A stretch of 33,225 nt of DNA from a virus (lineage: Duplodnaviria > Caudoviricetes): IMG/VR virus record IMGVR_UViG_3300037722_001728, positions 1 to 33,225 of that record; one strand, 5' to 3'. Below are positions 1-15,530 of this stretch, one piece after another; position 1 is the first letter of the stretch; every line of letters starts with the position of its first letter. Below the pieces are notes generated by a model. That model did not search any database, was not told the DNA's origin, and worked only from the letters and a program-made list of their open reading frames with translations. The translations under genes and the position numbers were made by a program.

Positions 1-35
1 CTAGGTTGCAGGTTCGAGTCCTGCCCAGGGAGCCA
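1..35 (+). tRNA. 3' portion of a tRNA, probably tRNA-Asn; likely integration site
   Basis: T-arm GCAGG-TTCGAGT-CCTGC (8-24), acceptor strand CCAGGGA (25-31), discriminator G, encoded CCA (33-35). A G discriminator with an implied 5' TCC fits tRNA-Asn; the anticodon lies outside the window. Confidence 0.8.
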
Positions 36-1548
36 AATGTCCCGGTGTACTAACCGAGTTCCGGTTCGGTAACCCGTACCAGATCTCGACAGTACGCCGA
101 TCATGGATAAGCACCTTCTTCACCACCTGGCGGAGAAGGTGCTTCTTTTTTTGGTTGGTCCCTTTCTCCATCGTTTCCTCAAATTCGACCACCAGTCTTG
201 AGAGCATCTTCCGGTCCACGGGGGTAAGTTCAAGCCGCTCCCTCCGCGCTTCCAGGTCCTTCTTCTCGACCTCAAGTTCCTGCAACTGCGCCTTGAGATC
301 CTGGACCTTCTGGTTGCAGAGGTCGGGTTTCATGGACCCGGTCTCGAAGGCTTCAAAGTACCGATCTATCCTTGCCTGGATCCTCGCCGCTTGGTACTCG
401 ATCCTGGTGATCTCCTTCTCTAGGGCTGGTTTCTCCTTGCCAACAAGCTTGCTCGCCTCTTTCCAGACCTGGGCGATGAATCGCTCATCCCGGTACATTG
501 TCTTGACGTCCTGAATGATCGCGTTCTCGAGGTAGTCGGCCCGCACATAATCCTGATCGCAGTCATGGGTGTTCCAGCGCTTGGCGCAGAGGTAATATGG
601 GTACCTGCGCTCCTTCTTGTGGGTCGTGACCCCCACCATATGGCCCTTGCAGCGGGCGCACTTGATGGTCCCGGAAAGGAGGCGCTCGTCGCCATTTTCG
701 AACCGGCGTCCGCTCAGGCTCTCAACACGATCCTTCAAGAGCGCCTGAGCCTTGTCGAAGAGGATCTCCGAAATGATGGCGTCGTGATTCCCGTCGTAGA
801 CCACCTCGCGCCAGCGGATCTTCCCGACGTAAGTCGGATTCTTGATCATGTGCAGGATCACCCGTTTGTCCCACTTCTCTCCGCTGCGCTTGCGGTGCCC
901 TGCCTCGTTCATTTTGTGGCAGATCGTATGCACACCTTCCCTGCCGAAGGCGTACATCTGGAACATCTTGCGGACGATGAGCGCTTCTTCTTCATTGATG
1001 ATCAATCCCTTTTCTGGGTCCAACGTGAAGCCGTAGGGAACGTTCCCGCCCACGAATTGACCGCCCTTGGCCTTCTTCTCCATTCCGACCTTGGTCCGCT
1101 CCACAATGGTCGCGTGTTCGAACTCGGCGAAGACGCCCAGCATCTGCAACATCATCTTTCCGGCGGCGTTTGCCGTGTCAAACGGCTCGGTGATGCTCTT
1201 GAGCGTGACTCCGAACTTGGTGAGTTCGTCCACCATCTGTGCGAGCTCGCGTACTTTGCGGGAAAGGCGGTCCACGCGGAAGACCAGGAGGACATCGAAG
1301 GATTGGGCCGTGGCGTCGTAGAGCATTTCCTCCAAGCCAGGCCGGTTCATGTGAGTTCCGGATACGGTATCCCGATAGATTTTATGGAGCCGCCATTGGT
1401 CGCCGAATTGGGCTTTGCAGAACGCTTCCAACCGCTCCGACTGTGCTCCGAGGGAATATTTCTGGTGGTCCTCGTCTGTCGAGATGCGGGTGTAGAAAGC
1501 AACGCGAGGAGTTTGTCCGTTTCCACTTAATTGTTTATTTTTATTCAC
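1..1548 (-). CDS. Large serine recombinase/integrase (LSR1)
   Basis: Catalytic YTRIST and DRLSR motifs, recombinase domain (VPYGF), Zn ribbon (CARC...YYLC...C), coiled coil. RBS AGGAG before GTG; the stop codon lies within the tRNA sequence. Confidence 0.95.
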   Translation of the reverse strand: MNKNKQLSGNGQTPRVAFYTRISTDEDHQKYSLGAQSERLEAFCKAQFGDQWRLHKIYRDTVSGTHMNRPGLEEMLYDATAQSFDVLLVFRVDRLSRKVRELAQMVDELTKFGVTLKSITEPFDTANAAGKMMLQMLGVFAEFEHATIVERTKVGMEKKAKGGQFVGGNVPYGFTLDPEKGLIINEEEALIVRKMFQMYAFGREGVHTICHKMNEAGHRKRSGEKWDKRVILHMIKNPTYVGKIRWREVVYDGNHDAIISEILFDKAQALLKDRVESLSGRRFENGDERLLSGTIKCARCKGHMVGVTTHKKERRYPYYLCAKRWNTHDCDQDYVRADYLENAIIQDVKTMYRDERFIAQVWKEASKLVGKEKPALEKEITRIEYQAARIQARIDRYFEAFETGSMKPDLCNQKVQDLKAQLQELEVEKKDLEARRERLELTPVDRKMLSRLVVEFEETMEKGTNQKKKHLLRQVVKKVLIHDRRTVEIWYGLPNRNSVSTPGHLAPWAGLEPAT

Positions 1549-1765
1549 ATTAATCTCCTGTAAGCCCTGACACTCCTACCTCGGGGGGCGCCCGGATTCA
1601 AGGCAAATCCCTCCTTATTCCCGGTTCTGTGGCCGAGCTTCTACATAGAAATGGGAACCAAGGAGGAACTTCTGATATTGCTTTATTTGCAATAGTTTGT
1701 TTGTCTTAGGGTCGATAGGGTACAGGAGGGCATTTTTTAGTAGGTCAGCAGGAGCAAGGATATCA

Positions 1766-2545
1766 ATGGGTCATAACAGCCTCGGAAATCTGCCCCGTAC
1801 TCGAAAGTGGATTCAGGTTCTCGACCTGATTGGCGGCGGTGCAGGAACACCCGAGATTGCTGCTGCCACGATGGAAGCTTCACAGGGGGGGCTTGCTAAG
1901 GCAGCGCAAGACCGTGGTCTTGTATATGCAGTGTGGCTTCTTACCCAAATTCCAATAGCTGCTCGTGGTGAGAATTTTGTTTCAAGTCTTCGAAATCTCG
2001 GGCTTGAGGTATCTGACGCCGCCAGCCTGTTAGAGGTTACGGGAGCTTTTACCGAGGCCGTTGATGCGCATCTGCGCCGCAACGGTGGCCGGACCGACCT
2101 CGGCGAGATGGCCCAAATGGCGGCAGTCGAGACTATCACTGCACTCGGGATGCCCAAAACCGAAAGCTTGTTCGGTACCACTACGGTCGACGTCCAGCGG
2201 GCCTTCAAGACCTTCTCCACCAACAAACAATTCAGCGTACTGGCACGGGATTTTTTCGCACGCCTCAGTAGAAAGTACCTGACTTATTTTCTGAGCCGAA
2301 CGCTCTCCAACTACGTGGGCGGGAATGGTCGATTCGCCAATGTCTCCGAGCACGTCAAGTTCAATGAAGCTCTCGATCTGCATTGCCGCGAAGCTTCTCT
2401 GATCGTCGAGAGGTTCTCCGGGGGGTGGTTTTCGAAAACGAACTTTAAAGGTGGTATCACTCCCCAGAAGACCGCGGATTTCGTCTATGTCGCGCTGAAA
2501 AAGATCCGCGCGGAATTGGCTAGAGGAGCACACGCTCATGGCTAG
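1766..2545 (+). CDS. QatB-like helical partner protein of the QueC-family enzyme
   Basis: ATG at 1766 with RBS AGGAG/AAGGA gives MGHNSLG... (259 aa). The stop overlaps the QueC start. QatB-likeness is inferred from position, size and N-terminal Gly. Confidence 0.6.
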   Translation: MGHNSLGNLPRTRKWIQVLDLIGGGAGTPEIAAATMEASQGGLAKAAQDRGLVYAVWLLTQIPIAARGENFVSSLRNLGLEVSDAASLLEVTGAFTEAVDAHLRRNGGRTDLGEMAQMAAVETITALGMPKTESLFGTTTVDVQRAFKTFSTNKQFSVLARDFFARLSRKYLTYFLSRTLSNYVGGNGRFANVSEHVKFNEALDLHCREASLIVERFSGGWFSKTNFKGGITPQKTADFVYVALKKIRAELARGAHAHG

Positions 2546-4466
2546 AGAGCGTGTTGTGCTTTGCGGAAACCTGACAAGGCCAGAAGACAAAACGAGGAGG
2601 ACGGTCGGCCTGCAACTCTGGGGGAAAGCCCCGAATGTCACGCTCAAGATCAGTGACATTAGCTCTCGGATGGTGGCGAACATACCTCCCGTCTTGGTCG
2701 ACCTTCTGGAGATCGCAAGCTACGTCTACTGTGCTGACCAGGCGACCACCCGCGGCGAGAACGATGCCGACGATCACGGAGCCAAGTGGAGACGCCGATT
2801 TCGGTTTCGCATACCAGTCAGGGCACCCGAGTTGTGGTCATCCGACGCCGTCTTAACGCCGCTGTGCGACACGTTGGGATTCCTTTCGGATGACGAATAC
2901 GAGTTCAACTTTGAGAAAGCAGTTAATCCGCCTGAGTTGTTGCAGTACTTGGACTTCGGTGCCGATGGAGCCACGGGATTTAAGGCAGAGGAAGTCGTCC
3001 TGTTCTCGGGGGGTATCGATTCCCTCGGGGGAGCCGTCCGGGAAGCCGTCGTCGAGAAGCGAAAGGTTGCGCTGGTTAGCCACCGTTCCGCACCGAAGAT
3101 CTTCAGCCGACAAAAGAGCCTCCTACAGACTCTTGGAGAGTTCTGCGCAACTAAACCTTTCCACGTTCCTGTCTGGGTGTATAAGGAAAAAAAGCTGGGA
3201 AGGGAGTTCTCCCAGCGGACCCGATCGTTTCTTTATGCATCGCTGGCGGTCGTGGTGGCACGGATCTTCAACCTCTGGAGGATCCGTTTTTATGAGAACG
3301 GGCCGGTGAGCATTAACCTTCCGATCTCGGCGCAAATCGTCGGAAGTCGGGCAACTCGAACGACTCATCCCCAGGTCCTAAACGGTTTTTCACAGCTTTT
3401 CGGTTCTCTCTTCCAACGTCCGTTCACCGTGGAGAATCCGTTCATATGGAAGACTAGGGCAGACGTGGTTCAGTCGATACGCGAAGCCGGATGCGGCCGA
3501 CTGCTCAAGAATTCCGTGAGCTGCACGCGCGTATTCGAAATGACAAACATTAAGACCCACTGCGGCACTTGCTCTCAATGCATAGACCGACGATTTGCCA
3601 CACTATCCACCGGTTGCTCGGATGATGAAGATCCGGAGGAGATGTACGAAGTTGATCTCCTCAAAGGAGCGCGACAGCCGGGCGAGAGTCGGACGATGCT
3701 GGAGTCTTACGTTCGGACAGCCAAGCGGATCAAGGATATGCCCGACATGTCCTTCTTCTCCGAATTCGGGGAGGTGAACCGAGTAACCCGGAACATAAAG
3801 GGCTATACGGTGGATGAGGCGGCTTCTAACATCCTGGATCTCTACAAGCGTCACGCAGCGCAAATCTTCGGCGTCATCACCAAGGGGATTCAGGATTATG
3901 CAGAGGAAATCAACGGTGGCAAAGTGCCGGATTCCTGCCTACTCATACTGGCGCTGGAAGAGAAGTATAAGCGACAACTAACAAGCGAAGGGATGCCGCC
4001 AATACCGGTACTGGCCCTCGACGAAATTAAAGACGGTGAGGCCAATCGAAACTTGCTGGCGCGGATTGTGGGCAGCGGACGTTATGTGCTCGTGAACAAG
4101 AAGATCGGCCCGCGTCAGTTGTTTTTCACGTACCTGTTATTTGGGTCGCCGCGCGCGCTTAACTTCGACGGAGAACATATAACCGTCGTGAGCAAAGACG
4201 ACGTTATACAAGAGCTGCAGAAATGGAGGACCGAAGGATACCTGCAGTTTTCAGGGAAGGACCAAGGCGAACCTGCATACCGCGTGCAAAAGATGTGGGG
4301 AGAATTCGTCCGCCAGATCGAAAAGGAAAAGAACCTCAAGAATCTCCTCACGGACGACCATAAGGACAAAGACAAGAAGAGGTTATACGGCATCCGCCTC
4401 CAGCCCAATGAGACGCAGATTCTTATCCCAAGTCTTCCTGCACTCTTCAAAATGGTAAGCGGCTAA
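2538..4466 (+). CDS. QueC-family (QatC-like) PP-loop ATPase with C-terminal extension
   Basis: PP-loop LFSGGIDS, QRTRSFLY, YENG, TRTTHP, and Zn ligands SC...HCGTCSQC. Long N-terminal region (DLLEIASYVYCADQ) as in QatC; about 160 extra C-terminal residues. Confidence 0.85.
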   Translation: MARERVVLCGNLTRPEDKTRRTVGLQLWGKAPNVTLKISDISSRMVANIPPVLVDLLEIASYVYCADQATTRGENDADDHGAKWRRRFRFRIPVRAPELWSSDAVLTPLCDTLGFLSDDEYEFNFEKAVNPPELLQYLDFGADGATGFKAEEVVLFSGGIDSLGGAVREAVVEKRKVALVSHRSAPKIFSRQKSLLQTLGEFCATKPFHVPVWVYKEKKLGREFSQRTRSFLYASLAVVVARIFNLWRIRFYENGPVSINLPISAQIVGSRATRTTHPQVLNGFSQLFGSLFQRPFTVENPFIWKTRADVVQSIREAGCGRLLKNSVSCTRVFEMTNIKTHCGTCSQCIDRRFATLSTGCSDDEDPEEMYEVDLLKGARQPGESRTMLESYVRTAKRIKDMPDMSFFSEFGEVNRVTRNIKGYTVDEAASNILDLYKRHAAQIFGVITKGIQDYAEEINGGKVPDSCLLILALEEKYKRQLTSEGMPPIPVLALDEIKDGEANRNLLARIVGSGRYVLVNKKIGPRQLFFTYLLFGSPRALNFDGEHITVVSKDDVIQELQKWRTEGYLQFSGKDQGEPAYRVQKMWGEFVRQIEKEKNLKNLLTDDHKDKDKKRLYGIRLQPNETQILIPSLPALFKMVSG

Positions 4467-4490
4467 CCAACCTTCCGTTCGCATGATTCG

Positions 4491-4520
4491 AAACCGGCCC
4501 TCCATGGCCGGTTTTATTGT
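4491..4520 (+). terminator. Rho-independent terminator after the QueC operon
   Basis: AAACCGGCC-CTCCAT-GGCCGGTTT followed by a T-rich tail. Confidence 0.7.
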
Positions 4521-4685
4521 TTCCTTGCAAATGGTGTGAATTTTTCACATCCCATCCTTCCGTTAACCCCTTACCCCACAAGCATTTACAGCACACTATC
4601 GTCCTCTTTTCACACCCTTCAATGAAGATTTTGGATGGGCAAGAATTAGGAAAATTCTGCGTGGCAGGGCTACGGGAACGACACT

Positions 4686-6389
4686 TTGGTCAAGTCGAAG
4701 AACTTAAGCAGGGATGGGCAAGCAACCCGAATTGCCTTCTACACTCGCATTTCGACCGACGAGGATCACCAGAAGTTCTCTCTCGGCGCGCAAAGCGATC
4801 GGCTCGAAGCATTCTGTCGGGCCCAGTACGGCGACGATTGGCGGCTCCAGAAAATTTATCGCGATACGGAGTCCGGCACGCACATGAACCGGCCGGGCCT
4901 CGAAGAAATGTTGTTCGACGCTGAGGCTAAAGCCTTCGATGTCCTCCTCGTCTTCCGGGTCGACCGCCTCTCCCGTAAGGTCCGGGAGCTTGCCCAGATG
5001 GTGGATGAGCTCGCAAAGCATGGCGTCATCCTCAGGAGCATCACCGAGCCGTTCGACACGGCCAACGCCGCCGGAAAGATGATGTTGCAAATGCTCGGCG
5101 TCTTTGCCGAATTCGAACACGCCACCATCGTTGAAAGAACGAAAGTCGGGATGGAAAAAAAGGCGAAGAGCGGAAAGTGGGTTGGAGGCGTTGTGCCATA
5201 CGGTTACCAACTTGATCCGGAGAAAGGTCTGGTCGTTAAAGAGGACGAGGCAATTGTCGTTCGGAAGATGTTTCAGATGTACGCGTTTGGTAGGCAGGGC
5301 GTGCACACGATCTGCCACAAGCTTAACGAGGCCGGTTACCGGAAGCGGACCGGTCAGGCGTGGGACAAGCGAGTCATTCTCCACATCATCAAGAGCCCCG
5401 TCTATGTCAGCAAGGTCCGCTGGTGCGATGCGATCTACGAGGGCACCCACGAGTCCGTCGTATCGGAGGTCCTCTATGACAAGGCCAAAGGAATCCTGAA
5501 GGACCGCGTCGAAAGCCTGAGTGGCCGCCGGTTCGACAACGGCGATGAGCGTCTGCTCGCTGGGGTAATTAAGTGTTCCCGGTGCAAGAGTCACATGGTC
5601 GGGGTCAGCACCCACAAGAAGGATCGCAGGTTCCCGTACTACCTTTGCGCCAAGCGCTGGAACACCCGTGAGTGCGATCAGGATTACATTCGGGCTGACC
5701 ACGTCGAAGCAACGATCCTTCAGGACATCAAGGCCATGTTCCGGGACGAACCGTTTATCGCTCGGGTCCGGGAAGAGGCCAACAAGGGGCTTGTTGCCGC
5801 GAAACCAGATTTGGAGAAAGAGATCGCCTGGCTCGAGAACCAGGTGGCGAAGGCCCAGGGGGCCATCGACCGCTATTTCGAAGCATTCGAAACCGGGAAG
5901 CTAATGGCCGAGATGTGCAGCGAGAAGGTTGGGGACCTTAAAGCTCGGTTGGTTGGTTTGGAGGCCGAGAGGCGGGATCTGGAAACTCGCCGAAATCGTC
6001 TGGAGCTGCCAGCCATCGATTTGGAAATGGTCACCTCTTTCGTCGAGAACCTCGAGCAGTTGATCGCGGCAGGGACGAACCCAAAAAAGAAACACCTTCT
6101 CCGTCTACTTGTGAAGAAAGTACTCGTCCACGATCGGCACACGGTCGAGGTTTGGTACGCATTATTGCCCCCCTTTGTGGGTCATACGTCTGAGTCGGAA
6201 ACAGTCATCCAACGTCATTTCGGAACGCTCTCCCCGGCGGATGTCGATGAGTTGGTCGAGGGCGTGGCGGACATGGTCGTTGATTTTCTCAAGGGTGGCG
6301 TGAGTTCGAGTGGCAGGGGAAAAACCAGCAGAGAAGCGAAAACCGAAGTGGTCCAGCCGAAGATTCCAGACATGAGGAGGGTGGGATGA
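4686..6389 (+). CDS. Large serine recombinase (LSR2), paralogue of LSR1 with an unrelated C-terminal tail
   Basis: Same catalytic, recombinase, Zn-ribbon and coiled-coil layout. Colinear with LSR1 up to VEVWY (~6158). TTG start with a weak RBS. Confidence 0.93.
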   Translation: MVKSKNLSRDGQATRIAFYTRISTDEDHQKFSLGAQSDRLEAFCRAQYGDDWRLQKIYRDTESGTHMNRPGLEEMLFDAEAKAFDVLLVFRVDRLSRKVRELAQMVDELAKHGVILRSITEPFDTANAAGKMMLQMLGVFAEFEHATIVERTKVGMEKKAKSGKWVGGVVPYGYQLDPEKGLVVKEDEAIVVRKMFQMYAFGRQGVHTICHKLNEAGYRKRTGQAWDKRVILHIIKSPVYVSKVRWCDAIYEGTHESVVSEVLYDKAKGILKDRVESLSGRRFDNGDERLLAGVIKCSRCKSHMVGVSTHKKDRRFPYYLCAKRWNTRECDQDYIRADHVEATILQDIKAMFRDEPFIARVREEANKGLVAAKPDLEKEIAWLENQVAKAQGAIDRYFEAFETGKLMAEMCSEKVGDLKARLVGLEAERRDLETRRNRLELPAIDLEMVTSFVENLEQLIAAGTNPKKKHLLRLLVKKVLVHDRHTVEVWYALLPPFVGHTSESETVIQRHFGTLSPADVDELVEGVADMVVDFLKGGVSSSGRGKTSREAKTEVVQPKIPDMRRVG

Positions 6390-6514
6390 GGAGGAGGCTG
6401 AAAAATTTCCTTCTTTATCACGTTGTCGCTTCGTGGAGTGGTGCGCTTCCACCTCCCCTGACATGGGCGTTGATCTGCTGGTATCTCCTTAGGCCGTTTC
6501 TGAAGGGAGCGTGA
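6386..6514 (+). CDS. Small hydrophobic protein (42 aa), not in the ORF track
   Basis: RBS AGGAGG (6375-6380); ATGA overlap with the LSR2 stop and GTGA overlap with the primase start. MRRRLKNFLLYHVVASWSGALPPPLTWALICWYLLRPFLKGA. Confidence 0.6.
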   Translation: MRRRLKNFLLYHVVASWSGALPPPLTWALICWYLLRPFLKGA

Positions 6515-8259
6515 GGTTGGACGCCAAGGCATGGGCCGATACGGTTTCGATCATCCCAATCGAAGCTCGCGGGAAGAAACCTCTTATCTCTTGGGCCGAG
6601 TATCAACAGCGCAGAGCGGGGTGGGAAGAGCGCGAGGAGTGGAAGAATAAATTCCCCGGCTGCAACTGGGGGCTCGTGACCGGCAAGATTTCAGGACTCG
6701 TTGCGCTGGATTTTGATGGCGAGGAAGGATATGCGCTCCGGAAGGAGAAGAACGTCTACGGCGCGATCCCAACGAACCTGACGGGGAAAGGCTGCCATTG
6801 TCTCTTCAGGCATCCTGATCGTGAGATTCGCAATGGGGCTCGGCTTCTCCCAGGCCTTGACGTACGGGGCGACGGTGGTTACATCGTTATCCCTCCGAGT
6901 ATTCACCCATCAGGGAAGAAGTACGGGTGGCAGATCCCGCCCTGGATGGTTCCGGATCTACCCGAGCTTCCCGAGTGGGTATGGCCTCTCGTTGATCGGA
7001 GCAATGGCAATGGAGCTCCTCCGACCGCCTCCAATGAATCCACCCGCGACGGTCTCCCGCCCGGGGCGGCGAAGGGCACCCGGAATGCAACGGCCACCCG
7101 AGTGGCTGGACAACTCTTTAGGAAAGGGCTATCTGAAGCCGCCGTGATAGCCGTCATACGGGAATGGAACAAGAAGAACTGCCCGCCGTTGAGTGAAAAG
7201 GAACTGCTTCAGGTTGTCCAGTCGATTGGGAAAGCCGAACACCGCCAGAACCCGCCGACCCTTTTGGTCTCCGGTGTCGAATTCGTCGCCGAGAAGATGG
7301 ATGCCTCTCGGACCCTGATCGATCCGATCATGCCCGACCCGGCCCGGATCATCTTGGCCGGATTCGCAGGCGTGGGGAAAACATCGCTCGCCATGAACCA
7401 GGCGGCGGCTCATTCGGCCGGACTCTCTTTCCTGGGATGGCAGGCGGCCCGGAAGACGGTCCTCTATATCGATGGAGAGAACCCGCGGCCACTTGTCCAA
7501 AAGCGGCTCGGGATCATTTTCAACGCCATGGGCGGAAATCTCCGGAGCATCCATTTCGCTTTCCCAGAGCGGAAGCTCGACCTTGGTATTCCGGCGGGGC
7601 TCTCCGAACTAGAGGGGATGATCGGTCGCACCGGGGCGGGGATCGTCGTCCTCGATTCCTTCTTGAACTTCTTCAGCCTCAAGAGTGAGAACGACTCCGC
7701 GGAAACTCGCCGGGCCCTCGATGGCCTGACGACCCTCATGAGAATGACCGGGTGCTCGGTCCTCATCCTCGACCACACGACGAAACCTCTACGCGAGGCG
7801 CGAGGACGCGGCGAAGTGGGGCCGCCGACCCCCCGGGGGAGCGGTGCAAAGGTCGATTTCGCCGATGTGGTGCTCGTCCTCGAGGAGAAGAAGAGCGAGG
7901 GACGATTCCTCAAGACCCTGCACTTCACAAAACTTCGAGGTCACCCACCGATGCGGCCGCTCATTCTGGAAATGGACGGTCGACTTTGCTTTCGGCCGGT
8001 CGGTGAAGATGCTGTTGTTCCCGTGGAGATCATTCGCGAGGCGGTCGAGATGGACCCTGGGATCCGGACAGGCGACCTCCTCCGTCGCATTACGAACCGA
8101 ACCGGCGCTGGGGACCGAACGATCTATCGGGCCATTGATCGGGCGGAGGCACAGAAACTCATCTGCCGAGTCCAGCAGGGGCGCACCGTCCTGCTCTATC
8201 CCGTTGGGGGATTACTGCCATTGGCAAGCGAGCTCGATACGGGGTCACCCAAATGCTGA
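6511..8259 (+). CDS. Bifunctional primase-polymerase with PriCT-1 and RepA/AAA_25-like helicase domain
   Basis: Prim-Pol motifs GKKP, NWGLVTG, LDFD, GCHCLF, DVRGDGGYIVIPPS; PriCT GTRN...PPLSEKEL; Walker A GFAGVGKT; Walker B VVLDS. Confidence 0.9.
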   Translation: MRLDAKAWADTVSIIPIEARGKKPLISWAEYQQRRAGWEEREEWKNKFPGCNWGLVTGKISGLVALDFDGEEGYALRKEKNVYGAIPTNLTGKGCHCLFRHPDREIRNGARLLPGLDVRGDGGYIVIPPSIHPSGKKYGWQIPPWMVPDLPELPEWVWPLVDRSNGNGAPPTASNESTRDGLPPGAAKGTRNATATRVAGQLFRKGLSEAAVIAVIREWNKKNCPPLSEKELLQVVQSIGKAEHRQNPPTLLVSGVEFVAEKMDASRTLIDPIMPDPARIILAGFAGVGKTSLAMNQAAAHSAGLSFLGWQAARKTVLYIDGENPRPLVQKRLGIIFNAMGGNLRSIHFAFPERKLDLGIPAGLSELEGMIGRTGAGIVVLDSFLNFFSLKSENDSAETRRALDGLTTLMRMTGCSVLILDHTTKPLREARGRGEVGPPTPRGSGAKVDFADVVLVLEEKKSEGRFLKTLHFTKLRGHPPMRPLILEMDGRLCFRPVGEDAVVPVEIIREAVEMDPGIRTGDLLRRITNRTGAGDRTIYRAIDRAEAQKLICRVQQGRTVLLYPVGGLLPLASELDTGSPKC

Positions 8260-8412
8260 TGTTTACCGGCCAGTTGGGATTACTGCCATGCTGCCATGAT
8301 GTGTCGGGGAGGGCGACAGGAATGCAACTCATTGAAAATTCAAGGGTTCGGCGATTACTGCCACACTGCCATGAGGTCTATATAAATAAAGACAGTAGCC
8401 ATGGCAGTAATC
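8210..8412. repeat. Putative replication origin with 11-bp iterons
   Basis: GATTACTGCCA at 8210, 8278 and 8353, exact inverted copy at 8402-8412, AT-rich TATATAAATAAA between the last two. Confidence 0.7.
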
Positions 8413-8450
8413 AAATGGCAACGATCGGGCAAAACAGGGAGGCGGTATAG

Positions 8451-8759
8451 ATGCCTCGATCGCCGAGAGGACACTTCATGCGAGCAGCCGAACTTCGGAC
8501 GCTGGTCCAGGCCCCGTCGACCGTCAAGTATCGCAAGGACCCTCCGGCTCCGATCAAGTGCGACTTTTCCAACGAGCGACTTCACTACTGTATCGACATC
8601 GCGCTGCTCGTCGAGCGGTGCGACCGATCCGGGTACATGGCGGCGTACCTGTCGGGGATGCGGTGGGAGGCGATACCGGAGGTCTTCCGGGGGAAGTGCG
8701 CGGCGGATATTCGACGGCTTCGGCGGGAACTAAGGGATGGAGGTTATTCCGTTGAGTGA
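8451..8759 (+). CDS. Hypothetical phage protein
   Basis: RBS GGAGG upstream (alternative ATG at 8478); overlaps the next gene. Confidence 0.55.
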   Translation: MPRSPRGHFMRAAELRTLVQAPSTVKYRKDPPAPIKCDFSNERLHYCIDIALLVERCDRSGYMAAYLSGMRWEAIPEVFRGKCAADIRRLRRELRDGGYSVE

Positions 8760-8961
8760 CTGGCTCGTCGGAAAGAAGGAGGTGGCAAATGCACTCGGGG
8801 TGAGTGTTAGTACGTTGAAGCGGTATCTGAAGCGATACCCCGATTTCCCGGCGAACAGGCGGGGGGGAACGATCTACGTGTCTCCGGAGGCGCTGGATGC
8901 CTGGGTGGAACATCGGGCTTTAAAGAAATGCCCGATCTGCGGAATTACTATTCCCGCCTGA
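8737..8961 (+). CDS. Excisionase-like HTH protein (HTH_17/MerR type) with C-terminal CxxC
   Basis: GKKEVANALGVSVSTLKRY helix-turn-helix, wing, ALDAWV, then CPICG. Confidence 0.8.
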   Translation: MEVIPLSDWLVGKKEVANALGVSVSTLKRYLKRYPDFPANRRGGTIYVSPEALDAWVEHRALKKCPICGITIPA

Positions 8962-8991
8962 TATCTTACGGTTTTCCAACCGCAGAATGAT

Positions 8992-9020
8992 TTGATGGGA
9001 ACGAGAGGTTCCGTTATACT
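8992..9020 (+). promoter_or_regulatory. Sigma70-type promoter facing the cassette array
   Basis: TTGATG-17 bp-TATACT; the spacer holds the palindrome GGAAC-GAGAG-GTTCC. Confidence 0.65.
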
Positions 9021-9234
9021 TCCCTGAGCGTCGGCTCATTGGTCTTTAACGCGGTTCGACTATGGGGGTTCGATGTCCCCTGAAATACCGCGATACGAAG
9101 ATCCTGTCCACGACACCCTGCTATCACGACAACCTCCGGGACACAGGTCTACTCGTTGTCGCCCTCCTCGTATATCGCGGTTCTTTTATTGACGTGTTGA
9201 TGTGCCCAGCGTCACGATAGGCAGCGGAAAAGCA

Positions 9235-9252
9235 GCCTAATACGCGTTAGAC
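9235..9252 (+). other. attI-like integron recombination site (start of first cassette)
   Basis: GCCTAAT-ACGC-GTTAGAC: inverted L-like box plus GTTRRRY core, with no attC hairpin upstream; the AT-rich cassette starts right after it. Confidence 0.55.
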
Positions 9253-9270
9253 AGACATTAGGAGAATTTA

Positions 9271-9834
9271 ATGCCTTCATGGAGAGAATTGGAATCTAAC
9301 TTTCGAGATTTAGAACCGGTTCTGAAATTTACGCGCGTTGACGGACAATGGGGAAGTGCTGGCGATTATTGGAGCGTTGTTGGGAGTAATGACCCCTATC
9401 CAATTAAGCGTTTCGAGGCCATTGCAAGGATAGCAGGCGAAAAGCTTAGAAATTCCCTTCAAGAAACTCCTGATCCGCCTCAAGATGTTGTGGGTGAACC
9501 CGATCCGGCTATATGTTGGTATAAGGGTGTGGCGCGGATCAGTAGGAGTATGAAGACTGATTATCCAGGCGAACATTTTGATAAAAAAGGGGATTCACTT
9601 GGTTTTATTTATACTGGCCGTATAGATAGAATTGCAGAGGCGTCGGCAATATTCTGTTTAGAGCTATCAGGCACTTTTCCCGAACCTGTACCACCAACAG
9701 TACCTATTGATAAACAAGAAATGAAGGTTTCTAAGTTACGAGTATTTTGGGACAAGTATGGGTCGCAGATATTAATCGGTATTGTTGTTACAGTTGTAGG
9801 AGGCATTATATTGTTAATTATAGTAGGCAAGTGA
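9271..9834 (+). CDS. Cassette 1: hypothetical protein with C-terminal transmembrane helix
   Basis: RBS AGGAG; lower GC; C-terminal ILIGIVVTVVGGIILLIIV; bounded by GTTAGAC and attC1. Confidence 0.8.
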   Translation: MPSWRELESNFRDLEPVLKFTRVDGQWGSAGDYWSVVGSNDPYPIKRFEAIARIAGEKLRNSLQETPDPPQDVVGEPDPAICWYKGVARISRSMKTDYPGEHFDKKGDSLGFIYTGRIDRIAEASAIFCLELSGTFPEPVPPTVPIDKQEMKVSKLRVFWDKYGSQILIGIVVTVVGGIILLIIVGK

Positions 9835-9848
9835 TTGATATTGACGCT

Positions 9849-9924
9849 GGCTAACCACAGGCTGAAGCAGACGGCTCACCTGGTGAACTTCCTGAGTGCC
9901 CTCAGCTTAGCCTGAGAGTTAGAC
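9849..9924 (+). repeat. attC site 1 (76 bp)
   Basis: R'' GGCTAAC ... CAGGCT(G)AAGC pairs with GCTTAGCCTG leaving one extrahelical base ... R' GTTAGAC. Confidence 0.9.
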
Positions 9925-9932
9925 GCTTAGCC

Positions 9933-10673
9933 GTGAGTGAGGGAATGATGTTTAAAGATATATGGATATTTTTTAAATCTGTTTTTAAAAACCTTAAATT
10001 ATTGCTTACAGGAAGTGTAATAATTGCCACATTGGTAATAATTGAACATATGTATGGCACTCCGCTGTCTTGGCCTAAATTTAGTCTATTAATATTATTG
10101 ATGTTGTTTATTTCATGTTTTATGGTCTGGCAGGAAGCACATCACAAGCACAATGATCTTTATAATAACTTAAAGCCGATGCTAAAGTTAGTATATTCTG
10201 ATGTTAAAGAGCGTCCGTGGTATCAAGAATTTAATTATCATGGTGATCCAAATGCAAATATATGGGAGCAATGCCAATATCGCTTTGGAATATTTAATGA
10301 AAGTCTGTCAGATATTCATAATATAAAAGTGGTTTTAGATAAAGTTGAGATTGGGGACTCTAATATTTTCTTTCCTGGTCTTTGCTTGCGGGTAATGGGA
10401 AGTAATACAAATTCGCCCATTTTTAATTTGGCACCTCATGCGACTCAGTATATTGATATATTTAGTTATACTCTTCGAAGAAGTGGCGAACAGGCTGAAT
10501 TTAATTGTATTACGTATGCAGAAATAGGTGAAAAAGAGATACCTGTTGGAAATTATCAATTATTATTTAGGGTTGATTGGGGCGGCATTCCACTATATAT
10601 AAAAACTATTGTAGAAAATTCAGCTACAAAGTTCCATTTTTATTTTAAAAATAATTTGGATGCTACCGTCTAA
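9933..10673 (+). CDS. Cassette 2: hypothetical membrane protein (two N-terminal TM helices and a beta-rich domain)
   Basis: Very AT-rich. Its stop TAA lies in R'' GTCTAAC, the exact complement of the cassette's own GTTAGAC. The start may be ATG 9945 or 9948. Confidence 0.8.
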   Translation: MSEGMMFKDIWIFFKSVFKNLKLLLTGSVIIATLVIIEHMYGTPLSWPKFSLLILLMLFISCFMVWQEAHHKHNDLYNNLKPMLKLVYSDVKERPWYQEFNYHGDPNANIWEQCQYRFGIFNESLSDIHNIKVVLDKVEIGDSNIFFPGLCLRVMGSNTNSPIFNLAPHATQYIDIFSYTLRRSGEQAEFNCITYAEIGEKEIPVGNYQLLFRVDWGGIPLYIKTIVENSATKFHFYFKNNLDATV

Positions 10674-10739
10674 CAACAGGCTGGAGCTGACGGCTGCCCT
10701 GCGGGAGATCGTGAGGCCCCGCAGCTTAGCCTGAGCGTT
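10668..10739 (+). repeat. attC site 2, R' core split by an IS
   Basis: GTCTAACAACAGGCTGGAGCTG...CAGCTTAGCCTGAGCGTT; removing the IS restores GTTAGAT. Confidence 0.88.
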
Positions 10740-10792
10740 GATATGGTGTGACCGGCGTCAAGTGGTTTTTCGATACGCCTCTCCTATTTTCC

Positions 10793-10980
10793 TTTTGCGG
10801 TGGGGCGGAGCGCGGCGATGTCGACGGTGATCATGCTGATATGCGCGGGTTTGACCGCATGACAATGATCCGTCCGGAGCTGCCTCGCTCTAGAAGCGCG
10901 GGTTGGGGACGATCGCCCTGCCGCATAACGCTACCGAGGGTTCTCCTTCCGTTCCCCACGTCCCCGCACCCACCGCAAAA
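10793..10980 (-). ncRNA. Predicted bridge/seek RNA of the IS1111-type element
   Basis: Closing stem (10793-10804 with 10969-10980) around two parallel stem-internal-loop units that match the target and donor sequences. Confidence 0.75.
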
Positions 10981-11011
10981 GCCCGAAGATCTTTGTTCTC
11001 CCGGAAAACCT

Positions 11012-12100
11012 TCAGATCCGACCGATCGCCCAGACAAACCCCGCCAGTTCCCGCGCCACGGCCACCGCGGCCACGGTCGTTCGCTTGCCGCGCATGACCA
11101 TGCGGGTGAATTTGCGGTACAGCCGTACCTCCGCCTTGCGCGCCGTCTCGATCACATCGGGAGGTTGTCCCTCGCGTCGCTTCCGGATGGTCTCCCCCGT
11201 GCGATGCGGCGGGTGCCGGTAGTGCCAGGCGGCCTCCACCAGGACACGCCGGAGGTGGGCGTTCCCGGCCCGCGTGAGGGATCCGCGCCGTTGTTTCCCG
11301 CCGCTGGAGTATTCCGAAGGGACCAGGCCGATGAAGGACATCAGGTCCCGGGGAGAAGCGAACCGGGACAGGTCGATCAACTCGGAATGGATCGTCATCG
11401 CCGTAAGCGTGCGCACGCCGCGCAAGGTCTTCAATCGCGCCACGGCGGGTGCGATGCCCGGATTCTGCGCCTCCTCTTCGATCCGCGCGTCGAGCCTTGC
11501 GACCCGCTCCAGTTGCTGGTCCACGGCCAAGACGTATTCGGTCATGACGGTTCCGGCGTTGGCGTCATCGAAGGTGAGCGCACGGATCCACCGCCAGTGC
11601 TCCCGGGTCCACGATTTTCCTTCAAAGCGTTGCCCTCGACGCAGGAGGAATTTCTGCAGCCGGTGGCGGCAACGCACGAGGTCCTCGTTGGCGTCCTCCC
11701 GGGCACGCACGAGATCCCGCAAAGCTTCCTGGGCAGGCGTGGGGACGCAGATCGCGGTGAGTTCTCCCATGCGGTGCATGCGGGCCAGTTTCTCCGCGTC
11801 GCGCCGGTCCGTCTTGATCCGGTCCCCGGGCCGCGTGGGAATCAGGGAAGGGGCGATCACGTCGCAGGGGATTCCCTTTCCGTCGAGGAATCGCCGCAGG
11901 TCGTAGCCGCAGGGACCAGCCTCGTAGACGCACCGTGCCTTCCCAAGCCCCGCGATACGCCCCGCCAGCCGCTCCTTCCCCTTGGCCGTGTTCGGCGTCT
12001 CCCAGCGGGTCATGACGGTTCCCGAATCGCCGGAGATGCTGACGGTGACAATGTTTTCCTTGTGGACGTCCATTCCGACCCAGGTGGTAGAATTCGACAT
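11012..12100 (-). CDS. IS110-family transposase/recombinase
   Basis: RuvC-like DEDD motifs VGMDVHK, YEAG, KTDRRDA; C-terminal GLVPSEYSSGG; RBS AGGAGG. Confidence 0.95.
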   Translation of the reverse strand: MSNSTTWVGMDVHKENIVTVSISGDSGTVMTRWETPNTAKGKERLAGRIAGLGKARCVYEAGPCGYDLRRFLDGKGIPCDVIAPSLIPTRPGDRIKTDRRDAEKLARMHRMGELTAICVPTPAQEALRDLVRAREDANEDLVRCRHRLQKFLLRRGQRFEGKSWTREHWRWIRALTFDDANAGTVMTEYVLAVDQQLERVARLDARIEEEAQNPGIAPAVARLKTLRGVRTLTAMTIHSELIDLSRFASPRDLMSFIGLVPSEYSSGGKQRRGSLTRAGNAHLRRVLVEAAWHYRHPPHRTGETIRKRREGQPPDVIETARKAEVRLYRKFTRMVMRGKRTTVAAVAVARELAGFVWAIGRI

Positions 12101-12243
12101 GACCGGTCCCTCCTGTATTGTGGCTCTGGTCGGGTTCGCACCCGACTAACCCACGAAGATACACGACGGGGCCGGTCACACCATAATGTCTAGATTGACC
12201 AATATGGATACGATCTGAGATCTATGTACGAGAGGCGAATAAT

Positions 12244-13296
12244 TTGACATTTTGTGTCGGGTGGAAGTATCAAGATTCTATTTTCCTCGTGGCTGACTCG
12301 GCTGTAACAAAAAGCACTCCACTTACCTTGCCGCAATCTAGCTTCGGCGAAACACATCCATTTACAGGTGAGTATTATGTAGAGGAGGGTTTGTTAAAAA
12401 TAGTTCCAATTTCAAATAATTTTGTTGTAGCTTTTTCAGGAGATGTATTGATGGCAACAGAAATAATAAAATTTATAAAAGAACACCTTAGGAATAATAG
12501 CGATATTATATTATTGTTTAAATCTATGGCCAAATCGTTGGGTCCTTTTGAAAAAAATCGCGCTGTATCTTTAATCATCGCAACCACAATAGGCGGACAT
12601 CTAGATTTAGTGAAATGGGAAACGGAAGACTCACATAATCTTTTACAGGGGGATGAATATTTGCAAATAGGGAGTGTCCAACCATTTCATGGTTTGATGA
12701 CACAAGCTATTTTGTCACTATTGGCAAAAGGAAATCTGCCAATTGAACGCATGCTACCAATATCTACGGCAATTATTCAGTCATTTGGGATCCATTACGA
12801 CATGATGAGCCAGTATATTGGCGGAATGATTTATGGACTTTCAATAGATAGTAAAAACATGCTTTGTTGGCAGGAAGACACAAGATATATCCTTTACGAT
12901 CCGGAGTTTAAAGACATTGGTTTTATAACGTGCTTGTGTAGAGGGGATGCAGTATCTATAAGGTCTACTATTACAAATGACACTCGGGTATTGTTGCATA
13001 GCTCCAACTCCCTTCGACCAAATGATTGGAATGATAAATGGAAAGAACTACTTATTTGCGATTATCAGTCATGTTCAGTTAAATATTGGTCTTTTTTAAG
13101 CAAGAAGGACCATAATATAACTGTCGTAACATTGCCCGTAAAAAGTAATGGAGGTAAATATTTCATAATGAAGTATCTTGGGGAGGGGAAATATGATTTT
13201 TCTATTAATCCAAAATTTGTCGAAATGTTAACTTCGCCTCTCTTGGAAAATGGTGAATTAGGTATACCATATAGATTGACGTGTATTGAAGGATAG
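12244..13296 (+). CDS. Cassette 3: Ntn-hydrolase/proteasome-beta-like protein
   Basis: MTFCVGW...LVADSAVT...LKI...VAFSGD...QIGS pattern. The cassette runs from reconstituted GTTAGAT to the complementary ATCTAAC. Confidence 0.65.
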   Translation: MTFCVGWKYQDSIFLVADSAVTKSTPLTLPQSSFGETHPFTGEYYVEEGLLKIVPISNNFVVAFSGDVLMATEIIKFIKEHLRNNSDIILLFKSMAKSLGPFEKNRAVSLIIATTIGGHLDLVKWETEDSHNLLQGDEYLQIGSVQPFHGLMTQAILSLLAKGNLPIERMLPISTAIIQSFGIHYDMMSQYIGGMIYGLSIDSKNMLCWQEDTRYILYDPEFKDIGFITCLCRGDAVSIRSTITNDTRVLLHSSNSLRPNDWNDKWKELLICDYQSCSVKYWSFLSKKDHNITVVTLPVKSNGGKYFIMKYLGEGKYDFSINPKFVEMLTSPLLENGELGIPYRLTCIEG

Positions 13297-13320
13297 ACAT
13301 AAATAATGCATGTGACCGCA

Positions 13321-13368
13321 ATCTAACAACAGGCTGAAGCTGACGGCTCGCCTGTTGCCCCCCCGCAG
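13321..13368 (+). repeat. attC site 3, right arm missing
   Basis: ATCTAACAACAGGCTGAAGCTGACGGCT is nearly identical to the left arms of attC1/2; no CTTAGCCTG...GTT follows. Confidence 0.8.
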
Positions 13369-13466
13369 ATATACGATGGTCCATTTTGGCCCCTTCCCGA
13401 TCCCACCTTGCATGGTGTAATTTTGCATTACACTGGTTGAACTGTCGGGAAACACTCTCCCACGAT

Positions 13467-13502
13467 GGCCGGATTTCCTCACAAGGAGATCCGGCCTTTT
13501 TC
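13467..13502 (+). terminator. Terminator-like hairpin just upstream of the late genes
   Basis: GGCCGGATTTCCT-CACA-AGGAGATCCGGCC-TTTTT. Confidence 0.7.
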
Positions 13503-14210: not shown

Positions 14211-15530
14211 TTGAAAGTCGCCTTAATGCACCCGTCCAAGGTAATTCCGTACGCCCGTAACCCCCGGAAAAATCAGGCAGCTATCGCCAAAGTGGCCGCC
14301 TCGATCCGAGAGTTCGGTTTCCGGCAGCCGATCGTCGTAGACAGCGAAATGGTCATCGTGGTCGGGCATACCCGGTACTTGGCCGCCTTGCAACTCGGAT
14401 TGGAGAAAATTCCGGTCCATGTGGCGGAGGGACTATCCCCCGAACAGGTCAAGGCGTATCGGATCATGGACAATCGTTCCCACGAGGATTCCGAGTGGGA
14501 CGACTCTCTCCTGGCGATCGAATTGACCGAGCTTCAAGATGCCGACTTCGACATGGAGCTGACCGGGTTCGACGAGGACGAGCTTGCTGAGAAGCTGGCG
14601 GCGGGGATCGTTGGAACGGCGGGCTTAACCGACCCCGACGAGGTGCCGGAGCCTCCCGACGATGCGATCACGCAGCCAAGGGACCTGTGGGTCTTAGGCG
14701 ACCACCGGCTTCTGTGTGGGGACAGCGGGAGCGTGGAAGACGTCGATTACCTGCTGGGCGGGGCGACGGTCCACTTGGTAAACACTGACCCGCCATACAA
14801 CGTCAAAGTCGAGCCTCGCAGCAACAACGCGATCGCCGCCGGGAACAGCTCGTTTACGAAGACGCATCACCAGAGCCTGGATCTCGCCCTCCACCCGGGG
14901 AAGGATAAGCCCACCACCAAGAAGATGCGGCCCAAGGACCGACAGCTGATGAACGACTTCGTCTCCGATGAGGAGTTCGATCGTTTGCTCCGGGCGTGGT
15001 TTGGGAACATTTCCCGGGTGCTCGAGCCCGGGCGGGGGTTCTACATTTGGGGGGGGTACGCCAACTGCGGGAACTATCCGCCTGTTTTGAAGGCAAACAA
15101 GCTCTACTTCGCCCAAGCGGTCATCTGGGTCAAGGAACATCCGGTCCTCACCCGCAAGGACTTCATGGGAAATCACGAATGGTGCTTTTACGGGTGGAAA
15201 GAAGGCGCAGCGCACCAGTGGTTAGGCCCGACCAATGCCACCGACGTCTGGTCGGTGAAGAAGGTCAACCCTCAGAGCATGGTGCATCTGACCGAGAAGC
15301 CGGTGGAGCTGGCCGCTCGGGCGATGCAGTATTCCTCGCGGCCGGGCGAGAACGTTCTGGACCTGTTCGGAGGTAGCGGATCAACTCTCATCGGCGCGGA
15401 GCAGGCCGGACGCAAGTCCTTTCTCATGGAACTCGATCCTCCGTATTGCGATGTGATCGTGAGCCGGTGGGAGAACTTCACCGGCAAGAAAGCGGAGCGC
15501 ATCCCTCGTGGCGACCGCGTGGCTGTTTAA
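14211..15530 (+). CDS. ParB-like domain fused to an N6A/N4C DNA methyltransferase
   Basis: PYARNPR, FGFRQPIVVD, GHTR (ParB); TDPPYN, HLTEKPVEL, VLDLFGGSGST (beta-class MTase). Confidence 0.92.
   Translation: MKVALMHPSKVIPYARNPRKNQAAIAKVAASIREFGFRQPIVVDSEMVIVVGHTRYLAALQLGLEKIPVHVAEGLSPEQVKAYRIMDNRSHEDSEWDDSLLAIELTELQDADFDMELTGFDEDELAEKLAAGIVGTAGLTDPDEVPEPPDDAITQPRDLWVLGDHRLLCGDSGSVEDVDYLLGGATVHLVNTDPPYNVKVEPRSNNAIAAGNSSFTKTHHQSLDLALHPGKDKPTTKKMRPKDRQLMNDFVSDEEFDRLLRAWFGNISRVLEPGRGFYIWGGYANCGNYPPVLKANKLYFAQAVIWVKEHPVLTRKDFMGNHEWCFYGWKEGAAHQWLGPTNATDVWSVKKVNPQSMVHLTEKPVELAARAMQYSSRPGENVLDLFGGSGSTLIGAEQAGRKSFLMELDPPYCDVIVSRWENFTGKKAERIPRGDRVAV

Follow-up and report, generated by a model that had tools for sequence, protein, structure and literature searches.

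How does a prophage come to hold a set of integron gene cassettes, and go on exchanging them, when it encodes no integrase able to move them? The question is raised by IMG/VR record IMGVR_UViG_3300037722_001728, a virus contig of 33,225 bases (here called the window, meaning this whole stretch). Between a module with a primase and a helix-turn-helix (HTH) gene and the head-tail module lie three AT-rich cassettes, each with a single open reading frame (ORF). A first-pass annotation, made from the letters alone, had drawn attention to these, and base composition (GC fraction 0.42, 0.32 and 0.36 in the cassette ORFs versus 0.59-0.62 in the phage backbone) and gene calls agree on them. The promoter-like site and the attI-like site ending in GTTAGAC (9246-9252) that it placed upstream of the cassettes are likewise there.

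The answer proposed here, to which we give a probability of about 0.7 from comparison of sequences, is that integron integrase (IntI) encoded by the host chromosome would load cassettes into the prophage in trans, at a platform made of this promoter and this attI. Coordinates are collected in Table 1.

Table 1. Features of the window, with the second attI copies of four relatives; positions in the relatives are those of their own contigs.
Feature	Position	Strand	Basis or remark
tRNA-Asn 3' end, likely prophage attachment duplicate	1..35	+	sequence match in host genomes
Primase, replication module upstream of slot	6511-8259		
HTH_17/excisionase-like gene, left flank of variable slot	8737..8961	+	family match; kept in relatives
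Decayed host-type intI fragment (IntI-specific insertion region), stop and frameshifts	8984..9110	+	DNA profiles
Predicted cassette promoter, TTGATG-17-TATACT	8992..9020	+	within intI remnant
Short upstream ORF, 39 codons	9073..9192	+	start kept in 10/10 leaders; length varies
attI-like site, ~58 bp	9195..9252	+	19-bp simple site 9232-9250; predicted crossover after G9246
Cassette 1 ORF, 187 aa, C-terminal hydrophobic helix	9271..9834	+	4 homologues
attC1, complete	9849..9924	+	77.5 bits; bottom-strand hairpin z -3.3
Cassette 2 ORF, ~241-246 aa, N-terminal hydrophobic segments	9933..10673	+	ORF call
attC2, complete up to GTT, second T from IS	10668..10739 (scored as 10668-10743)	+	88.3 bits
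IS110-family (IS1111-type) insertion sequence (IS), 1452 bp	10739..12190	-	transposase family, ends
Cassette 3 ORF, 350 aa, proteasome-beta/HslV-like N-terminal domain (N-terminal nucleophile hydrolase)	12244..13296	+	profile, fold
attC3, left arm only	13321..13368	+	21.3 bits; inverse core matches cassette 3 start
Right boundary of slot	13381..13440	+	common to elements with and without platform
Second attI copy, L001	5546-5654		directly after Mrr
Second attI copy, L005	2169-2277		directly after Mrr
Second attI copy, L179	near 4270-4322	-	directly after Mrr
Second attI copy, L183	1476-1547		directly after Mrr

The array, its attI and the likely host

The host of the prophage is likely a bacterium of the Deferrimicrobiaceae, because the tRNA-Asn end of the window has matches there, because the attC family is common to both, and because intI relatives occur in 31 of 70 genomes of the family. 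The 35-base tRNA end is exact in one genome (G001, which includes a locus labelled Ca. Deferrimicrobium) and has one mismatch in G002 and in G003, with no match in G004 (three of the four genomes searched); a tRNA-Asn was found at both of the loci scanned from these matches. Related phage modules are present in three of the 70 genomes.

The attC sites were scored with a covariance model built here. Bacterial genomes yielded 98 stretches with a 26-base pattern taken from the repeats of the window, frequently with several on one contig, and Deferrimicrobiaceae was the commonest family label. In all, 149 distinct complete host sites were harvested, and 44 short ones were aligned for the model. 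Since the host sites were found via a left-arm pattern derived from the window, only the right arm counts as an independent test. Across the 44 sites, 92.6% of cells are paired, with 15 two-sided changes as against 6.2 after shuffling.

The model finds attC1 and attC2, and the sole further locus that it matches in the 33-kb window is attC3. The first two satisfy the R''/L''/L'/R' hairpin with its extrahelical bases, and are close to sites in host arrays (attC1 is identical to its nearest host-array site at 62 of 66 positions, attC2 to a host-array site at 64 of 66; phage attCs are 91-97% identical to host-array attCs). The third fails the hairpin, having no right arm. The first-pass annotation had stated that a related attC closes each cassette and that GTTAGAY opens each. 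Both statements hold for cassettes 1 and 2; cassette 3 ends in the left half of a site, and its opening core is split by the IS element, which the annotation did not mention. The reported complementarity of core and inverse core stands for cassette 1 (one mismatch) and cassette 2 (perfect), and for cassette 3 becomes perfect only after the IS is removed in silico.

[quoted passage not shown] Two complete attC sites are clustered, and the 33-kb record has no integron integrase. By sequence and position an attI stands at the head of the array, as in a complete integron; the functional intI that a complete integron has beside its array is absent.

The host family has the corresponding system. Both of the host IntI proteins tested score above the TIGR02249 cut-off, and host intI and its cassettes share one orientation. 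The end of intI is readable at 29 loci, and at 22 of these an attI lies 165-197 bases past the stop, with an invariant GTT; this is the simple site of the phage with two to seven differences. One host site is identical to the phage attI over 21 bases, on a contig that begins 198 bases upstream and so leaves intI out of view. Integrons with attI and attCs of the same kind, such as the first-pass annotation had supposed for the host, exist in the host family. A degenerate scan with the 19-mer gave 55 genome and 14 viral stretches, mostly without further likeness to the window, and the phage-type attI pattern has no match in the 70 host genomes.

Two further observations concern such sites. In 19 of 22 host loci (L202-L231), a GCAGCCTATC-like motif lies 136-148 bases upstream of the attI simple site, and is possibly an additional integrase-binding site. 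Integrons of Gemmatimonadota (L130 and L144) also have a same-orientation intI with attI about 200 bases downstream; the 19-mer of L144 is identical to that of the phage.

The leader and its intI remnant

Ten distinct contigs share the leader, the DNA ahead of the first cassette: the window, L001, L005, L098, L099, L176, L177, L179, L182 and L183. Relatives were gathered by protein and pattern searches, with L176, L177, L179, L182 and L183 found by the leader pattern itself. Conservation among the leaders stops at the attI core.

The first-pass annotation had reported that no intI is present. As regards coding sequence this is right, since neither tblastn nor a protein profile finds an intact IntI ORF in the 33-kb window. 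What it overlooked is that comparison with host genes shows the leader to be a decayed fragment from the 3' half of an intI of the Deferrimicrobiaceae type, oriented like its cassettes. Of 22 host intI genes, 21 are matched by a DNA profile of the ten leaders, 17 of them at E<0.05 and all in one register (-440 relative to the stop, or -437 in the case of one gene); these host genes are related to one another, so that the matches are not 21 independent tests. The best match of the profile scores 21.7 bits, versus a maximum of 4.5 in 40 column-shuffled profiles. In the reverse search, a profile of host intI matches ten of ten leaders, and across the whole window matches only 8984-9033 and the attI region; weaker intI similarity may extend to about 9175.

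The matched part is the D-L-K...Y-V-x-L-P...W-G-W-Q-W-V-F-P stretch of host IntI. All ten leaders have stops or frameshifts in this stretch, and the same rearranged segment is common to all. The catalytic RHSF region is absent from the leaders (23-26 of 60 bases at best), and the distance from the -35 box to the core is 254 bases in the phage versus 591 in a host. Because the damage is common to all carriers, the integrase would have died before the carriers diverged.

We read this as a putative cassette promoter that has been retained. The promoter-like site matches 9-10 of 12 consensus bases and keeps its position in all ten leaders, where the -10 hexamer is invariant (conservation of the -35 hexamer is 0.97 and of the spacer 0.78). 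The strong intI match starts about 8 bases before the -35 box. Homologous hexamers exist in 22 of 22 host intI genes, with the forms TTGA-N-N and TA[G/C/A]ACT (21 of 22); none is TATACT, which all ten phage leaders have.

The host genes deserve a remark of their own here. Inside all 22 same-orientation host intI genes (L202-L231), a sigma-70-like hexamer pair (7-9 of 12) lies 402 bases before the stop. This points to a candidate cassette promoter within the intI of same-orientation integrons, those of the hosts included. Codon constraint could, of course, explain the hexamers.

Other views of the leader fared poorly. As a structured RNA, it has only 2 of 38 predicted pairs with two-sided change; as a genome-wide portable promoter module, it gave three short matches in 70 genomes, one of which is an attI core. 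Scans with the leader pattern returned four viral loci already known and five genome hits, and the combination of HTH gene and leader has no match among 50,697 GenBank phages.

Cassette turnover and its explanations

The platform occupies a slot whose cargo varies. The 15 elements inspected (the window and 14 relatives) all diverge just upstream of the right boundary, and six complete slots measure 3.7-4.8 kb. Platform arrays have 1-5 attC sites or remnants each, and distinct cargo coding DNA totals 21.6 kb. All ten first genes differ, and they begin at the attI core wherever the core survives; among 32 cargo ORFs, not all of which are clearly bounded cassettes, one pair exceeds 60% identity. 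Among relatives with the leader the site is retained, and cargo changes at its G|TT core with matching inverse cores, the pattern that the first-pass annotation had anticipated. Neither of the two outcomes that the annotation had named as refuting its reading came about, since an attC model does find sites in the window and related elements do have the site with breakpoints at the cores; its interpretation is supported. A short, low-depth contig from another run likewise has the phage attI followed by another cassette start at 9252. In the window, L177 and L182, leaders that are 93-96% identical precede unrelated cargo. Cassette turnover would therefore have continued long after the integrase was lost.

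The platform also rides on different replication genes. The primase of the window is only 30-34% identical to those of L001, L099, L098 and L179, and 98.5% identical to that of L002, which has no platform. L182 is an element of about 12 kb (1804-13299) at a tRNA-Arg, with a tyrosine integrase, a different primase-helicase and no head genes in the locus. It is possibly a satellite.

On insertion by IntI, a cassette arrives with its own TTRRRY, and this is expected to mirror the inverse core of that cassette. This can be examined directly. Seven attI-to-attC pairs offer 28 variable core bases, of which 27 agree with the inverse core of the cassette concerned; an equally good result came from 8 of 5040 permutations. 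As a control, 57 of 79 consecutive pairs in host arrays are perfect, versus 0.15 after shuffling. By this comparison, whole cassettes are shown to sit exactly at the attI core. The signature alone cannot, of course, separate insertion by IntI from exchange via the seven bases common to attI and attC ends.

Given cargo turnover after loss of the integrase, host IntI acting in trans is the best and simplest explanation. Supply of IntI in trans is used in laboratory capture platforms (10.64898/2026.03.17.712381, in the part of the source available). The history would then run as follows. One ancestor captured the end of an integron into an existing cargo slot; intI was lost, and promoter and attI were kept, with the distance between them shrinking from 591 to 254 bp. 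Host IntI would insert excised host-type cassettes at G|TT of the phage attI, and older cassettes would be lost, either excised by IntI or deleted between the left arms of attC sites. Such loss would explain slots of the observed size, and also why different last genes precede the same half-site; in the window and L179, last genes that are unrelated run into a half-attC junction that is almost identical, which fits deletion between left arms. In the lysogen, the cargo would be expressed from the promoter, and particles released on induction would take it into new cells.

A broader reading, for which we would offer even odds, is that the phage lineage has domesticated the integron. Here, the integrase would have been discarded, the hidden promoter kept and its -10 box tuned, and attI turned into a standing port on the host cassette pool. 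Cassettes would enter at attI and, with size capped by packaging, be lost from the far end, with a second attI locking an Mrr gene first in some lines.

The evidence for that last element comes from four relatives (L001, L005, L179 and L183) in which the attI unit occurs a second time, after an Mrr gene. The four Mrr genes are 29-58% identical to one another. An attC left-arm remnant precedes the second attI in three of the four cases, and in three of the four, Mrr is the first gene and the first attI is altered. From these four cases, the second attI may lock Mrr beside the promoter while capture moves downstream. Host Mrr relatives (in 2 of 70 genomes) have no second attI unit after them.

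Turnover might instead have needed no IntI acting on the phage at all: one or a few captures of host array segments could have been followed by swaps and deletions driven by homology between attC arms, the 7-bp attI/attC stretch or the conserved slot flanks. Exchange via the common GCGTTAG would also keep core and inverse core matched. Sharp conserved flanks with variable cargo are seen in eight relatives without attI, and different last genes before the same terminal half-attC could not be produced by IntI excision. Platform presence needs three changes on both trees, which do not settle a single origin of the platform (L201, whose contig stops short of the slot, is labelled 'none' there, and the upstream tree lacks L009 and L005). 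Yet one capture into a slot of less than 5 kb does not account for first genes that differ in all ten carriers, nor for 21.6 kb of distinct cargo. Against this account, too, near-identical leaders precede unrelated cargo, and phage and host attI are homologous upstream of the crossover over at most 19-21 bp. We regard this account as unlikely.

Loading by host IntI could, of course, have occurred at a platform that is itself a decaying relic, kept for its promoter, with capture an occasional by-product. The -10 box shows no variation, yet 6 of 14 attI copies have a damaged GTT core; many attCs in L001, L179 and L182 are degenerate, and L009 retains the promoter part without attI. A mere relic would not lead one to expect an attI L box and spacer as conserved as the promoter region (0.93, versus 0.67-0.76 in neighbouring DNA, measured among leaders with a median identity of 73%), nor a second attI copy retained behind four different Mrr genes; we hold it to be quite improbable. 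Nor need the site be a captured attI. IntI inserts cassettes at many short genomic sites (10.1101/2022.09.11.507474, as far as its accessible text goes), and the DNA immediately ahead of the simple site does not resemble most host spacers, as would be expected of a native phage sequence turned into a secondary IntI target of the attG type. That proposal is largely refuted by the intI remnant with its in-register match: in host gene order and orientation, the site comes downstream of this remnant, and it matches host attI over 19-21 bp, once exactly. We give it almost no weight.

Several observations weigh against loading by host IntI in trans, or against the remnant from which it is argued. 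At the protein level, the test for an intI remnant gives 4.0 bits, a borderline score that 3 of 60 shuffles also reach. In the 70 host genomes, no match was found to the 40 bp that precede the simple site. The GTT core is mutated or lost in three of ten first attI copies (L005, L176 and L177) and in three of four second copies, so that no GTT column is invariant across attI copies. Six attI rows stand outside the seven-pair comparison: three attI-to-Mrr rows without a full attC (L001 scores 0/4), the second attI of L001 (L005's first cassette; 3/4), L176 (core deleted) and L177 (contig ends). The 30 phage cargo proteins have no close counterpart in the host arrays examined; one match, over 55 residues, is partial. 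L182 encodes an XerC-like integrase of its own, far below the IntI cut-off. Among 12 relatives with a readable slot found without the leader pattern, only four carry the platform, and therefore the slot also swaps cargo by other means; the platform is absent from L002, L007, L009, L104, L105, L106, L199 and L200, and the slot is unreadable in L003, L004, L006, L008 and L201. The support for loading in trans is, finally, comparative.

Phage CALINs have, of course, been published. Qi et al. (2023; PMC9892861), in the portion of the article available, report 17, and one headed by attI in the cryptic Shewanella prophage M16-3, with an intact IntI; the cases are treated there singly, and off-target or illegitimate recombination is suggested as the route of entry. 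M16-3 resembles the window in having attC-bounded cassettes in a temperate phage, with a host-type attI heading an array that has no integrase of its own. It is a single prophage, whereas here ten elements have a platform in common, intI survives only as a fossil, and cargo appears to have changed after intI died. With host integrons (2016; PMC4889954, excerpted) the phage shares the order intI 3' part, attI, cassettes, as well as the attI simple site and the attC family; unlike them, it has no functional IntI, 1-5 attC sites or remnants in place of long arrays, and a position in a phage cargo slot. CALINs are described in the accessible portions of PMC11389934 and PMC9024848 as degraded arrays able to donate cassettes, 'hitchers' of complete integrons. 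The phage array would likewise rely on IntI encoded elsewhere, but it keeps attI and a predicted promoter, would also receive cassettes, and travels with the phage. A literature search, with most subscription papers outside its scope, found no paper on a phage family that keeps a promoter-attI platform and changes cassettes after integrase loss. What appears to be new is a platform that is family-wide and derives from a fossil intI, together with evidence from comparison that site-exact capture has continued.

The gain and swap of accessory and defence genes at prophage hotspots is mostly ascribed to unspecific recombination. Here, both the entry site and a candidate enzyme can be named for a hotspot, and the base of crossover is predicted. 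If the proposal is true, a defined, site-specific mechanism lies behind a prophage accessory-gene hotspot, and phages can receive and carry integron cassettes without encoding IntI. A further suggestion from the leader is that, in some CALINs with 'no intI pseudogene', remnants are present that only DNA profiles can reveal; Cury et al. (2016), in the text available, count intI pseudogenes near 15 of 279 CALINs.

Cargo, the inserted element and neighbouring genes

What the cassettes of the window do is only partly suggested by their sequences; none of the three proteins matches PADLOC or Pfam. The cassette 1 protein also has no PHROG match, and fold searches with its model (predicted local distance difference test score, pLDDT, 83.6) gave no clear match. 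For cassette 2 there is no family match, and a search for relatives returned only itself and clusters of look-alikes without a name.

Cassette 3 is a predicted threonine peptidase. Among 50 homologues, Thr2 and Lys52 are each present in at least 90% and Asp18 in all; the family profile matches HslV at E 9e-6, and PF00227 is found in 8 of the 50. The fold match (Z 8.6, root-mean-square deviation 3.2, 97 residues aligned) comes from a low-confidence model (pLDDT 43). The family has 524 representatives at 50% clustering, with no Pfam match for most members, and no relative of cassette 3 was found in viral contigs. The protein resembles proteasome beta and HslV in its N-terminal Thr, Asp and Lys pattern and in the fold of residues 1-180; it differs in an additional C-terminal 150 residues, in identity of only 7-18% to solved structures, and in lacking a partner gene. 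A stand-alone protein of about 350 residues of this type moves here as an integron cassette. A short, low-depth contig from another run holds cassette 3 from 12191 with different upstream letters, which adds to the evidence for cassette turnover.

Across the platform arrays, 6 of 29 cargo proteins match PADLOC (four Mrr, one caspase/PDC-S65 and one weak nucleotidyltransferase), as do 3 of 6 cargo proteins of relatives without the platform. A defence role for the cassettes is plausible because of published integron work, in which cassettes have defence functions (10.1101/2024.07.02.601719; 10.1101/2024.07.02.601686; both in part). Slots without the platform hold a defence gene for a dCTP deaminase, a cluster with a UvrD/GajB-like helicase or genes that look metabolic (oriented positions L002 2365-4341, L104 9821-11689, L007 5982-9544 and L199 2385-4085).

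The IS element has a transposase gene at 11012-12100, 15-nt subterminal inverted repeats and a 273-nt non-coding region downstream of tnp. It interrupts the GTTAGAT core that opens cassette 3, which is the crossover core of attC2. At the host locus L023, the same IS end lies at the same attC base. Relatives of the element occur in 5 of 70 family genomes, and their traceable ends lie at attC-type boxes; ends at or within such boxes are seen in L010/L238, L237, L240 and L241. Relatives in L010 (5798-7240), L238 and L240, with transposases 64-67% identical, target other boxes of the same attC family. This suggests that the IS group naturally retargets among attC boxes. In its IS110-family transposase, subterminal inverted repeats, non-coding region downstream of tnp and insertion at an attC end, the element is like the IS1111-attC group (ISKpn4 and ISPst6; PMC11187229, in the sections available); the likeness drawn here is one of features. 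A seekRNA-type match to the target strands was sought in the non-coding region, and one 7-nt match was found, to the top strand only.

The rest of the record is that of a prophage: the 3' end of a tRNA-Asn comes first, then two serine recombinases, the primase, the HTH gene and a lambda-like head/tail module. No Rfam family was found in the window. The two large serine recombinases, at 1-1548 (-) and 4686-6389 (+), are similar, lie in opposite orientation and bracket an island of two genes. The prophage integrase could be either recombinase, or the island could be a separate element in the same tRNA. The island (1697-4466) holds one gene of 259-282 aa without a family and a QueC/QatC-like gene of 642 aa. 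The latter matches PADLOC QatC at E 5e-49, lies below the cut-off of NCBIfam QatC and has a long additional C-terminal part, so the island is possibly a Qat-related defence variant. On the far side of the slot, a terminator-like hairpin (13467-13496) lies downstream of the sharp right boundary. Just downstream of the slot, too, a DNA methyltransferase with a ParB domain is encoded at 14211-15530, which is of interest because four relatives encode the methyl-directed nuclease Mrr.

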